From sequence record NC_055708.1: a DNA stretch of 64,000 nt. One strand, written 5' to 3'. The position numbers and the translations under genes are program-made. The number at the start of each line of letters is the position of its first letter. Position 1 is the stretch's first letter. Below are positions 3,743 to 9,334 of this stretch, one piece after another. The notes below the pieces were generated by a model. The model made no database searches and was not told where the DNA came from. It saw only the letters and a list, made by a program, of their open reading frames with translations. Origin of the DNA: Enterobacteria phage ATK47.

Positions 3743-4041
3743 ATGAAAACATTACTAGAGAATTACATCAAACGGTCTGATGAGTATATTGATATCTGTC
3801 GTGGAATGTCACTTGGCAATTATGACAAAGATGCAGCAAAGGCACTAGATGAAGCAGGTAAAGCTCTTCGTAAAGCTGCTAAAGAAAAAGGGTTGGATTT
3901 GCAACAACTCAAAAGTCATATGATTAAATTTATTTCTTCAAACGTTAGAAGTACGTCAATTAATAAAAACGTTGCTGAAATTAATAAAGACCGGCGCGAG
4001 CATAACATTCGTATTCTTGAAATTTTCTTAGGAATAAAATA

Positions 4042-4042
<1 letters not shown>
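3743..4042 (+). CDS. Hypothetical protein, 99 aa
   Basis: ORF with GAGGA Shine-Dalgarno; predicted helical and charged; stop overlaps the next start (TAATG). Confidence 0.5.
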
Positions 4043-5128
<1,086 letters not shown>

Positions 5129-5129
<1 letters not shown>

Positions 5130-5532: not shown

Positions 5533-5808
5533 ATGTTCCCTAAATATTCTGAAATTGTAAAGGTAGTCTTCAGTCAGATTATTGCTAATAATATGTTTGA
5601 AGTGCTTGATAATGCAGCCGAACTCAGAGTTCATGCTCAACTAACTCATGTACTCAATGCTTTGCTCCCAGACCAAGTAGATTCTATTGCTATTACTCTT
5701 CTCCCTGGGTCTGCGCACGTCATAGTGGTATTTGATCTTGATGGTGATTTAGTTATCCAGTGTGATATCAATTTCGGTACACAAAAAATTGAATGCAAAG
5801 CAATTTAA
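5533..5808 (+). CDS. Hypothetical protein, 91 aa (cd.3 position)
   Basis: ORF with GAGGT Shine-Dalgarno; no motif. Confidence 0.45.
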   Translation: MFPKYSEIVKVVFSQIIANNMFEVLDNAAELRVHAQLTHVLNALLPDQVDSIAITLLPGSAHVIVVFDLDGDLVIQCDINFGTQKIECKAI

Positions 5809-5810
5809 TG

Positions 5811-5840
5811 GTTTACAACATGGCGGAGTTGTGATACTAT
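5811..5840 (+). promoter_or_regulatory. T4-type early promoter
   Basis: GTTTAC at 5811-5816 and TACTAT at 5835-5840; GAGG Shine-Dalgarno and ATG at 5869 follow. Confidence 0.6.
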
Positions 5841-5868
5841 AACTCTACCAACAAATGAGGAAATAGAA

Positions 5869-6105
5869 ATGCTAAGTGAAAACCCAATTACAGTACACGA
5901 ATTTCAGATTAAAGTAAAAGAATTTGCTCAAGCACTCATCAATAAAGTGTCTGAACGTTTCCAGGATGCAACATTACGAGTTATTCAAGAATCTCCACGT
6001 TCTTTTCTCATAATCGTTAATCCTAAAGATGGTGACCAAATTACTAATCTTAAATTAGGCAGTGATGGTCTTGTTGAAGCAACTCGAGTATATGGAACAC
6101 TATAA
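5869..6105 (+). CDS. Hypothetical protein, 78 aa (cd.2 position)
   Basis: ORF immediately downstream of an early promoter with a Shine-Dalgarno sequence. Confidence 0.5.
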   Translation: MLSENPITVHEFQIKVKEFAQALINKVSERFQDATLRVIQESPRSFLIIVNPKDGDQITNLKLGSDGLVEATRVYGTL

Positions 6106-6225
6106 TGAGAGCTATCTCATTACTATCGAGAATGGTCATAAATCTGAGCACTACCAACTTAGCCTGTCTAATCCGGTTAAAGGTATTGTTGAATCAGAAT
6201 CTGTTTATATCTCCTAAGGATTGTT

Positions 6226-7218
6226 ATGTTACCTGTCGTCGGAAAACTTATTTCTCCAAAAGAACTGGCTGAGATTATTCCTTTGTCGGAAGCTTACGCA
6301 TCACAAGTGGCTTCTCATCGCGAACAAGTTAATTCGATTATGAACGGTGAAGACCCACGCAAACTTATTGTTGTAGGTCCTTGTTCAATTCATGACCCTA
6401 TTGCTGCTGTTGAATACGGCAAACGTCTGGCTGAACTTCAAACTCGTCTTCCTAATGTTCTGTTAGTGATGCGCGTTTATTTTGAAAAGCCTCGAACTAC
6501 CGTAGGTTGGAAAGGTCTTGTAAATGATCCATATCTTGACGGAAGTTTTGATATGAACCACGGTCTTATAGTTGCACGAACATTGTGTCGTAAACTTCTA
6601 CGTATGGGACTTCCATTAGCAACTGAAGTATTAGACCCATTCACGATTAAGTATCTTTCTGGTATTTTCTCATGGGTTGCTATTGGCGCACGTACGACTG
6701 AAAGTCAGACACATCGTGAAATTGCTTCAGGTCTACCGATGTGCGTAGGCTTCAAGAACGCAACCAATGGTTCTATTAAAGTAGCTACAGACGCGATGTA
6801 TAGTGCCGCCTGGCCTCATCGGTATATGGGTATGGACGTCGATGGTACTGTAGGCATTGTTGAAGCTGAAGGTAATCAGAATACGCATATCGTATTGCGT
6901 GGCGGGACCAACGGCCCGAACTATCATTCTTCTGATATTCAAGAAGCTTCTAACAAAGCAAGGGCAGTAGGTCTGAATCATTATGTAATGGTTGACTGTA
7001 GCCATGCAAACGCTGATGGGCATTATAGCAATCAAATTGGTATTGGTAAAAAATTAGCAGCTAATGATTTGGTCAAAGGAATTATGATAGAATCGTTCCT
7101 ACATGAAGGAAATCAAAAAATTTCTGATAATATGTCCTATGGCGTTTCCGTTACCGATGCGTGCATCAGTTGGGAACAAACTAAAGAGCTGTTAACTTAT
7201 ATTAATAAGGTTCAATAA
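6226..7218 (+). CDS. 3-deoxy-D-arabino-heptulosonate 7-phosphate (DAHP) synthase, class I (AroG/AroF/AroH-like)
   Basis: 330 aa; motifs LIVVGPCSIHDP, VMRVYFEKPRTTVGWKGLVNDP, GARTTESQTHRE and IVLRGG align along its whole length with E. coli AroG as I recall it; AAGGA Shine-Dalgarno; stop overlaps the cd start. Confidence 0.85.
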   Translation: MLPVVGKLISPKELAEIIPLSEAYASQVASHREQVNSIMNGEDPRKLIVVGPCSIHDPIAAVEYGKRLAELQTRLPNVLLVMRVYFEKPRTTVGWKGLVNDPYLDGSFDMNHGLIVARTLCRKLLRMGLPLATEVLDPFTIKYLSGIFSWVAIGARTTESQTHREIASGLPMCVGFKNATNGSIKVATDAMYSAAWPHRYMGMDVDGTVGIVEAEGNQNTHIVLRGGTNGPNYHSSDIQEASNKARAVGLNHYVMVDCSHANADGHYSNQIGIGKKLAANDLVKGIMIESFLHEGNQKISDNMSYGVSVTDACISWEQTKELLTYINKVQ

Positions 7219-7799
7219 TGAAAGCTAGCACATACCTTCAGATTGCATATCTGATTTCTCAAGAATCAAAATGTTGTTCATGGAAAGTTGGTGCCGTCAT
7301 TGAAAAAGATGGACGCATTATCTCTACTGGATATAACGGTTCACCTGCAGGTGGCGTTAACTGTTGCGAACATGCATCTGAAAATGGTTGGTTGAAGAAT
7401 AAACCAATCCCAGTCATCGTTGCTGGACATAAAGAAGGCACTACAGCATTTGGACGGGTAGATAATTTTGTTTTAGCCAAAGAACATCGAGCTGCTCATA
7501 GTGCATGGTCTGCTAATAATGAAATCCATGCAGAATTGAATGCAATTTTGTTTGCCGCTCGTAAAGGTAATTCTATTGAAGGTGCTACGTTATATACGAC
7601 GCTTTCTCCATGTCCTGATTGTACTAAAGCTATTACGCAGTCAGGTATTAAAAAGGTTGTATATGCAGAATTATATGACCGATCTCCTGAAAACTGGGCA
7701 GACATTCTTAAACAAGCTGGTATTGAAGTAATTCAGTACTCTCGTAATAATCTTCGTTCTCTGAATTGGGAACAAATCCGAAACTTTTGTGGTGAATAA
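7218..7799 (+). CDS. cd: dCMP deaminase
   Basis: 193 aa, the same as T4 Cd; cytidine/deoxycytidylate deaminase zinc motifs (HAELNA ... SPCPDC). Confidence 0.9.
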   Translation: MKASTYLQIAYLISQESKCCSWKVGAVIEKDGRIISTGYNGSPAGGVNCCEHASENGWLKNKPIPVIVAGHKEGTTAFGRVDNFVLAKEHRAAHSAWSANNEIHAELNAILFAARKGNSIEGATLYTTLSPCPDCTKAITQSGIKKVVYAELYDRSPENWADILKQAGIEVIQYSRNNLRSLNWEQIRNFCGE

Positions 7800-8097: not shown

Positions 8098-8124
8098 TAT
8101 GCTTTACGAATAGTATGGTATTAT
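8097..8124 (+). promoter_or_regulatory. T4 middle-type promoter (MotA box ATGCTTTA plus TATTAT) upstream of gene 31
   Basis: MotA-box-like sequence at 8097-8106 and -10-like TATTAT at 8119-8124, 12 nt apart. Confidence 0.55.
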
Positions 8125-8611: not shown

Positions 8612-8860
8612 ATGATTAAACAATTACAACACGCTCTTGAACTGCAACGCAACGCATGGAATAACGGTCACGAAAACTACGGCGCTTCAATTGATGTTGA
8701 AGCCGAAGCACTGGAAATCCTGCGATATTTCAAACATCTGAATCCTGCTCAGGCTACTCTGGCTTCTGAACTGGAAGCTAAAGATGAATTGAAATATGCT
8801 AAGCCTCTGGCTTCTGCAGCACGCAAAGCAGTTCGTCATTTTGTTATTACCCTTAAATAA
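8612..8860 (+). CDS. rIII: rIII lysis-inhibition accessory protein
   Basis: 82 aa, the same as T4 RIII; located after gene 31 as in T4. Confidence 0.75.
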   Translation: MIKQLQHALELQRNAWNNGHENYGASIDVEAEALEILRYFKHLNPAQATLASELEAKDELKYAKPLASAARKAVRHFVITLK

Positions 8861-9154
8861 GTTTTAGGTGATTCGCTACCTTAGTGCGGCTAGAAAATCG
8901 AGGAGCCGTCGAACTGTCTGATTAATGATTTGCGAATCATTATAGTTTTAAGACCCCGGCAGTTTTACGGTGTACCTCTTGAATGTATTTTATACTATCA
9001 CGCGTCAGAAAAAGGTTATCTGTCTAAGTCGTGGTTGGTATGATGACGGGTTTATGGTTATCCTGTCGTTAAATATCCAAAACCTATGTTCCCCTTGAGG
9101 GCTTGCGCAGGCAATGTCAATAAGTCCTGCATTTTCATTTAAAGAGAATTTATA

Positions 9155-9334
9155 ATGGCAAAACAAGCTAAAGCAAAGAAAGCAGTTGAAAAGAAAGTTG
9201 ATGGTACCTCTAAACGCGCTGGATACAAGCGTGGGTCGAACTCTCGTATTAATCAAACAGTTGAGAAGATCATGCGCAGAGCACGTGCAGTTCTTCGAGA
9301 TGATGCTTCTCGTTTTGGAAAGGTTGTTGCATAA
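9155..9334 (+). CDS. Small lysine/arginine-rich basic protein, 59 aa (below the ORF-track cutoff; 30.9 position)
   Basis: ATG at 9155 to TAA at 9332-9334, read manually: MAKQAKAKKAVEKKVDGTSKRAGYKRGSNSRINQTVEKIMRRARAVLRDDASRFGKVVA; followed at once by a terminator hairpin. Confidence 0.45.
   Translation: MAKQAKAKKAVEKKVDGTSKRAGYKRGSNSRINQTVEKIMRRARAVLRDDASRFGKVVA

Follow-up and report, generated by a model that had tools for sequence, protein, structure and literature searches.

The window analysed in this study is a stretch of 64,000 nucleotides of Enterobacteria phage ATK47 (sequence record NC_055708.1). The gene under study lies between cd.2 and the dCMP deaminase gene cd and encodes a type I-alpha DAHP synthase (DAHP, 3-deoxy-D-arabinoheptulosonate 7-phosphate). 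Positions are those of the window unless otherwise stated, and the features are collected in Table 1. ATK47 is a T4-like phage of the RB69 group. Over the 6-kb neighbourhood of the gene there is 100% identity to Enterobacteria phage ATK48, a Mosigvirus (Straboviridae, Tevenvirinae); the DAHP synthase gene already has its name in the ATK48 record, and the ATK48 protein (ANZ51340) is 100% identical to that of ATK47. Being present in existing annotations and catalogues, the gene does not count as a discovery; the new point is the remodelled inhibitor pocket of its product. An earlier note, made from the letters of this DNA, had described a class I DAHP synthase related to Escherichia coli AroG along its whole length, and had suggested that the enzyme might escape the feedback inhibition of the host isozymes.

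The four motifs quoted in that description (LIVVGPCSIHDP, VMRVYFEKPRTTVGWKGL, GARTTESQTHRE and IVLRGG) were all found in the translation. The ATK47 protein matched the Pfam family PF00793 (DAHP_synth_1) with 252.5 bits (E 4.5e-75, cut-off 25.5), the NCBIfam equivalog TIGR00034 (aroFGH) with 427.9 bits (cut-off 173.2) and NF009395 with 454.8 bits (cut-off 343). The isozyme-specific NCBIfam models for AroG (362.6 < 568) and AroH (385.5 < 463) remained under their cut-offs, so the protein is not assignable to a single E. coli isozyme. The E. coli AroF structure 6AGM was matched over residues 8-327 of the ATK47 protein (E 7e-105). Full-length identities, taken from a four-way alignment with the E. 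coli enzymes, were 51% to AroF, 47% to AroG and 44% to AroH. Kinship with AroG over the full length was therefore confirmed, but the closest E. coli isozyme is AroF, not AroG.

A structural model was built with AlphaFold2 from 41 homologues (mean predicted local distance difference test score, pLDDT, 91.4; predicted template modelling score, pTM, 0.91). It contains the (beta/alpha)8 barrel, into which the beta6a/beta6b hairpin is inserted; residues 198-203 and 209-214 form the strands of this hairpin. The model was compared by Foldseek with AroG (1GG1 and 1KFL) and with the Neisseria DAHP synthase (DAH7PS) 4HSO, which gave template modelling (TM) scores of 0.95-0.96 and a root mean square deviation of about 1.6 A. 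The metal and phosphoenolpyruvate (PEP) sites were checked against AroG and all residues were intact. The metal ligands C53, H260, E289 and D311 correspond to AroG Cys61, His268, Glu302 and Asp326 and are invariant in the 25 phage-clade sequences. The residues binding PEP and erythrose 4-phosphate (E4P), namely R83, K88, P89, R90, T91, G154, A155, R156, K177 and R225, are all identical to those of AroG (Arg92, Lys97, Pro98-Arg99-Thr100, Gly163-Ala164-Arg165, Lys186 and Arg234 in AroG numbering). The seven PEP ligands (R83, K88, G154, A155, R156, K177 and R225) and the E4P motif KPRT are kept in 25/25 clade sequences. Since this catalytic machinery is complete and clade-invariant, it is very likely that the ATK47 protein is an active, metal-dependent DAHP synthase, converting PEP and E4P to DAHP and inorganic phosphate. 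The class I assignment thus held, with profile matches far above chance, a complete catalytic site and a TM score of 0.95 to AroG.

Positions at which the phage enzymes differ from their cellular relatives were selected by a column screen for which no sites were chosen beforehand. To be retained, a column had to show conservation of at least 90% among the 98 nearest cellular relatives (AroF, AroG and AroH included) and, in the 25 phage-clade sequences, a different residue with a fixation of at least 90%. Six of the 122 conserved columns passed this screen: AroG P150I, Q151K, D155G, S180P, F209Y and T223A, corresponding to I141, K142, G146, P171, Y200 and A214 in ATK47. All six are in or beside the inhibitor pocket. 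The canonical aromatic inhibitor pocket (Pro150, Gln151, Asp155, Ser180 and Phe209) is not present in ATK47, the first five of the residues listed above standing in its place. Such a non-canonical pocket lowers the case for regulation in the manner of AroF, AroG and AroH, not the case for a DAHP synthase. Four of the six columns belong to a published list of inhibitor-site residues (PMC9529685; hypergeometric p 5.7e-5), and five belong to it once published feedback-resistance positions are added (hypergeometric p 3.5e-6).

In AroG, bound Phe or Tyr is contacted at its main chain by Q151 and S180, and P150L, S180F and F209A/S are feedback-resistant variants (PMC9529685). The Phe site is located at the tight-dimer interface and is made up of the N-terminal extension and the beta-hairpin (PMC4735112). 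Like engineered feedback-resistant AroG (the variants above and D146N), the phage enzyme is substituted at positions 150, 180 and 209, here naturally, and also at Q151. Unlike the engineered variants, it has Ile, Pro and Tyr instead of Leu, Phe and Ala/Ser, and D146 is unchanged.

The N-terminus, which the earlier note had described as short, was then considered. Eleven codons upstream of ATG 6226 the frame is closed by a stop, and the interval contains no start codon; this fixes the start, and a longer N-terminus from an upstream start was rejected. The number of residues ahead of the equivalent of AroG residue 20 is 9-13 in the phage clade versus 17-54 in the 98 nearest cellular relatives, and the ATK47 protein lacks the full N-terminal extension by which type I-alpha DAHP synthases contribute to the partner subunit's inhibitor site. 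The only clade-wide deletions are those of AroG residues 1-8 and 289-291. An AroF carrying N8K and an AroF with a 7-residue N-terminal truncation are reportedly Tyr-insensitive (Jossek et al. 2001); none of the conclusions drawn here rests on this. As judged from the alignments, the phage lineage retains its catalytic equipment, and the changes fall selectively on the allosteric parts. Because the residues that hold the inhibitor main chain are replaced and the N-terminal residues 1-8 are removed, the phage enzyme is predicted to be insensitive to Tyr, Phe and Trp, and probably is. The suggestion of an escape from feedback is strengthened by the rebuilt pocket and the clade-wide loss of AroG residues 1-8, while still being a prediction.

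Compared with the three E. coli isozymes, among which AroF (6AGM) is the Tyr-sensitive one, the phage protein has the same fold and the same expected chemistry, with identical metal, PEP and KPRT residues. It differs from them in being 20-26 residues shorter, through the absence of AroG 1-8, AroG 289-291 and the C-terminal tail. Unlike aroF, aroG and aroH, its gene is phage-borne and AT-rich and has no promoter context controlled by TyrR or TrpR. A second comparison was made with the DAHP synthase of Aeromonas phage HJ05 (79 kb, not T4-like), which is likewise of type I-alpha with intact catalytic residues. Its pocket is also non-canonical, with A, H, P, P and V at AroG positions 150, 151, 155, 180 and 209, and the change of Ser180 to Pro is shared. 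In contrast to the ATK47 protein, to which it is 38% identical, the HJ05 enzyme has 387 amino acids (aa), a long N-terminus and a different genomic context; it is read from these differences as an independent acquisition. The HJ05 gene (OQ594355, locus coordinates 3899-5062) is recorded merely as a hypothetical protein.

Table 1. Features of the DAHP synthase locus in the ATK47 window (ORF, open reading frame)
Feature	Position	Strand	Size or sequence	Evidence or remark
Early-promoter-like site	5812..5840	+	TTTACA, 17 nt, TACTAT, TG before -10	Consensus scan
cd.2 homologue (DUF7320 / phrog_1504)	5869..6105	+	78 aa	First gene of the unit; PF24005, 121.5 bits
41-aa ORF	6092..6217	+	41 aa	phrog_15876 full-length match, E 3.8e-32
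Direct repeat, left copy	6102..6114	+	13 nt, ATAATGAGAGCTA	Spans the cd.2 stop; left edge of the 1,113-bp segment
Shine-Dalgarno sequence of DAHP synthase	6216..6220	+	AAGGA	5 nt before ATG 6226; overlaps the small-ORF stop
DAHP synthase, type I-alpha	6226..7218	+	330 aa	ATG start; ORF with profile, structure and alignment evidence
Direct repeat, right copy	7215..7227	+	13 nt, ATAATGAAAGCTA	Spans the DAHP synthase stop and the cd start
cd, dCMP deaminase	7218..7799	+	193 aa	PF00383, 92.6 bits; 72.5% identity to T4 Cd (193 aa)

The locus begins with pseT (4230-5129) and three conserved small ORFs, cd.3 among them, followed in order by the promoter-like site, cd.2, the 41-aa ORF, the DAHP synthase gene, cd, 31.1, gene 31 and rIII; alc sits just upstream within the same gene block. 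The cd.2 homologue matched phrog_1504 with E 1e-37 and is 65% identical to T4 Cd.2. The stop codon of the DAHP synthase gene (TAA, 7216-7218) and the start codon of cd (ATG, 7218-7220) have one base in common, as had been noticed earlier. In the T4 record the early promoter Pe133295 is annotated between cd.3 and cd.2, and the promoter-like site can be aligned with it at nearly every base. The + strand was scanned from 5840 to 6226 and no further sigma-70-like promoter site and no terminator-like site or hairpin was found; nor does a terminator precede cd. MotA-box-like sequences (TGCTTNA) are lacking on the + strand from 5610 to 6722. For the 120 nt ahead of the DAHP synthase gene, a promoter serving this gene, whether sigma-70-like or MotA-box-like, was thus rejected. 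The claim of a 120-nt spacer lacking a promoter of its own was correct as to the promoter, but the spacer is not empty, as it holds the 41-aa ORF, which is annotated in some RefSeq records.

The promoter-like site is the likely start of a transcript over cd.2, the small ORF, the DAHP synthase gene and cd. With a homologous promoter at this place and no intervening promoter or terminator, read-through expression of these genes as an early unit is the simplest reading, in agreement with the start of transcription near 5811 that had been proposed. Annotation of this interval varies between records. In the ATK48 GenBank record the cd.2 homologue and the 41-aa ORF are unannotated, which leaves an apparent gap of 417 bp upstream of the DAHP synthase gene. 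Both are annotated in other Mosigvirus RefSeq records; in NC_041863 the cd.2 homologue is given together with a slightly longer version of the 41-aa ORF. The top-scoring sigma-70-like match of the region (7022-7050, - strand; TTTACC, 17 nt, TATAAT, TG, 10/12) lies antisense within the DAHP synthase gene and is probably due to chance, promoter-like sites in the region numbering 12 versus 16.7 in shuffled controls. A MotA-box-like TGCTTTA is located at 8100-8106, about 50 nt upstream of gene 31 (8155), and is consistent with a middle promoter for this co-chaperonin gene.

The ATK47 and RB69 sequences were aligned by blastn. An exact indel of 1,113 bp, which takes in the small ORF together with the DAHP synthase gene, separates the two, and the flanks are 96-97% identical. 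The segment is bordered by two direct repeat copies (12/13 identical), and a single copy is found at the RB69 junction (around 9252 in the RB69 locus). The short form without the gene, in which cd.2 is joined directly to cd, was found in RB69 and ten other Mosigvirus records, and the gene is present in about 138. A repeat-mediated deletion and a microhomology-mediated insertion of a cassette would yield the same structure. The 41-aa ORF weakly matches positions 41-76 of phrog_1504, that is the C-terminal half of the cd.2 family (E 1.6e-5). Over 39 aa it shares 51% identity with the C-terminus of the cd.2 of Kanagawavirus CIP9 (E 1.4e-6), versus 29% with the cd.2 of its own genome. The ORF is a cd.2-type protein's C-terminal half in diverged form, and possibly a remnant brought in with the DAHP synthase cassette. 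Because it is nearer to a Kanagawavirus-type cd.2 than to its own, we lean towards insertion from another T4-like lineage. This suggests that the cassette reached Mosigvirus by recombination with that lineage, a gene fragment being carried along. The cd gene of RB69 is annotated with 169 aa (8743-9252 in the RB69 locus) versus 193 aa in ATK47 and T4, the DNA being contiguous at 95.7%; there seems to be either a premature stop or frameshift near its 3' end, or a difference of sequencing or annotation.

The distribution of the gene was determined by tblastn. DAHP synthase is carried by 211 phage records, 138 of them at an identity of at least 95% and the remainder down to 35%, under annotations that vary (aroF, AroG, DAHP synthetase, 'aldolase'). 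The ATK47 protein belongs to the Straboviridae family phrog_5045 ('phospho-2-dehydro-3-deoxyheptonate aldolase'), which it matched over residues 1-330 with 605.5 bits and from which no sequence-level difference was seen. Other members are ATK48 ANZ51340, O157 typing phage 3 YP_009592745, PEi20, EcS1 and F48. The category given to this family in PHROGs is 'moron, auxiliary metabolic gene and host takeover', with which the reading as an auxiliary metabolic gene in the earlier note agrees. The gene is mentioned in passing as a metabolic gene in the genome papers of phiC120 (PMC8022965) and of Kanagawavirus KLB31 (PMC11845039).

A search of 5.8 billion proteins gave a clean split between a phage group (55-98% identical, 319-343 aa) and a cellular group (at most 55% identical, 341-388 aa), the nearest members of which, at 51-55%, are taxonomically mixed. 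A cluster representative with 98% identity is labelled '[Escherichia coli]' by NCBI, but its contig is evidently a T4-like phage genome within a bacterial assembly. A search of cluster representatives did not return the phage clade as a separate cluster and added no phage members. The phage DAHP synthases are monophyletic in 100/100 neighbour-joining bootstraps, and the most basal members of the clade are likewise located on T4-like contigs.

The slot between cd.2 and cd is constant in Mosigvirus, Kanagawavirus, Winklervirus, Kagamiyamavirus, Marfavirus, Bragavirus and Gualtarvirus. The order pseT...cd.2-DAHP synthase-(cd.1)-cd...31-rIII recurs in these seven genera. Identity to the ATK47 copy declines from 77 to 59% for the DAHP synthase, in parallel with the adjacent cd (79 to 62%). 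Every copy is intact, and dN/dS (the ratio of nonsynonymous to synonymous substitution rates, ATK47 copy versus the seven genera) is 0.14-0.24, a sign of purifying selection. In T4, the same slot holds the unrelated cd.1 (112 aa) and no DAHP synthase, which bears out the claim that the gene is absent from the T4 backbone; in RB69 it holds nothing. A homologue of T4 cd.1 is found between the DAHP synthase gene and cd in Winklervirus, Kagamiyamavirus and Bragavirus (locus coordinates 3998-4339, 3983-4318 and 3957-4295, respectively). Because the two genes coexist in three genera, the DAHP synthase is not a family-wide replacement of cd.1; Mosigvirus is simply without it. The 'cd.1 position' given to the gene was right in placing it between cd.2 and cd.

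The GC content is 41.3% in the DAHP synthase gene versus 38.1% in the window, and GC at third codon positions (GC3) is 0.30 versus 0.51-0.57 in E. coli aroF, aroG and aroH. The composition is fully ameliorated to that of the phage, as expected from the mild GC enrichment and long residence that had been claimed. Monophyly, constant synteny, divergence parallel to that of cd, low dN/dS and ameliorated GC3 point to an accessory gene that has long been present in the T4-like phages of Enterobacterales, with mainly vertical inheritance and under selection.

From these data we propose the following role in infection. The DAHP synthase gene would be transcribed early from the site at 5812-5840 as part of the unit with cd.2, the small ORF and cd. 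T4-like phages shut off host transcription. After this shut-off, the host aro genes could not be derepressed and the three host isozymes would remain feedback-inhibited. A phage enzyme for the first step that does not bind Tyr, Phe or Trp would keep the entry of the shikimate pathway open. Carbon would then flow to chorismate and on to chorismate-derived cofactors such as folate and to the aromatic amino acids needed when phage protein is made in a burst. The probability of the whole statement, namely an enzyme that is active, expressed early, deregulated and beneficial through pathway flux, is put at roughly 0.6.

Several points weigh against this proposal. The promoter was assigned from its consensus and from homology. 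In the searchable full-text literature, no phage DAHP synthase was found to have been studied biochemically or genetically, nor was an analysis of the regulation of this phage family found. The gene is dispensable, at least on laboratory hosts, because RB69, ten other Mosigvirus records and T4 do without it. The pocket positions are plastic when the comparison is extended to 150 representatives (50% clusters): P150 is found in 83, Q151 in 82, F209 in 113 and S180 in 96, with Pro at this last position in 23. The exact combination of the phage pocket was not seen among these 150 representatives. A divergent pocket is, on these alignments, not unique to phages and by itself no proof of deregulation. 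The pocket signature was accordingly rejected as a phage-unique trait; it holds against the 98 nearest AroF-like relatives only, and the claim is weakened to that extent. Finally, the replaced pocket residues are more conserved in the clade than the remaining protein (entropy 0.42 versus 1.00, permutation P 0.003), which fits a site still under selection better than an abandoned one. This conservation could reflect a role at the dimer interface, a conformational lock or a different effector.

The last point bears on two other explanations, both considerably less probable than the proposed one. The enzyme may be active and still feedback-regulated by an aromatic amino acid, the pocket having changed in shape or specificity as it does between the Tyr-, Phe- and Trp-sensitive isozymes. 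This possibility, which we hold to be unlikely, is in line with the beta6a/beta6b hairpin kept in the AlphaFold2 model, with the unchanged pocket residues D146, P147, L179 and G211 (Pro147 and Gly211 being of AroF type), with the strong conservation of the pocket in the clade and with the variability of its positions across the wider family. Against it stands that Lys and Pro have taken the place of Q151 and S180, the residues in contact with the main chain that the three inhibitors share. Ile occupies position 150, at which the change P150L confers complete resistance, and the N-terminal residues 1-8 are absent.

To about the same small degree, the pocket may have been re-tuned to a new effector relevant to the phage, for example a metabolite of the nucleotide pool or a protein partner of phage or host origin, so that the shikimate entry would be under viral and not host control and would follow the state of the infection instead of the aromatic amino acid pools of the host. 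The residues I, K, G, P, Y and A are 96-100% fixed in a clade that otherwise descends to 55% identity, and conservation in the pocket as a whole significantly exceeds that of the remaining protein. An added positive charge (K142) lines the site. The product of the adjoining cd is, according to the T4 record, an allosteric enzyme activated by dCTP and hydroxymethyl-dCTP (HM-dCTP), and the non-canonical pocket of the independently acquired Aeromonas phage enzyme hints at recurrent rewiring in phages. However, the conservation is equally explicable by the role of the pocket at the tight-dimer interface (PMC4735112).

A catalytic activity other than DAHP synthesis, for example of the 3-deoxy-D-manno-octulosonate 8-phosphate (KDO8P) synthase kind, or a non-catalytic role is very improbable. 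KDO8P synthases also fall within PF00793, and lipopolysaccharide biosynthesis was named as a possibility in the phiC120 genome paper (PMC8022965), but the structural match to AroG has a TM score of 0.95, dN/dS is low and the active site is invariant. KDO8P synthase (KdsA) itself was rejected: the four NCBIfam hits are all DAHP synthase models and none is KdsA, and the protein has both the KPRT motif specific to DAHP synthases and the Cys that serves as a metal ligand. A recent host-derived passenger without adaptive role for the phage, to which the absence of the gene from T4, RB69 and some other Mosigvirus genomes would lend itself, is less credible still and is effectively refuted by phylogeny and composition (51% identity to AroF, GC3 of 0.30 versus 0.51, a monophyletic phage clade), with conserved synteny in seven genera and purifying selection against it as well.

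The natural feedback insensitivity of the phage DAHP synthase, argued here residue by residue, is a new if modest hypothesis. Mosigvirus relatives that naturally carry the gene (JK45) or lack it (JK42, JK36 and RB69) are at hand. If the proposed role is true, the phage enzymes would offer a natural, evolution-tested scaffold of a deregulated DAHP synthase for the production of aromatic compounds. A lytic phage would then be overriding an allosteric checkpoint of its host, beyond merely adding copies of an enzyme, and this would help to explain why the gene has been retained beside nucleotide-metabolism genes in seven genera.

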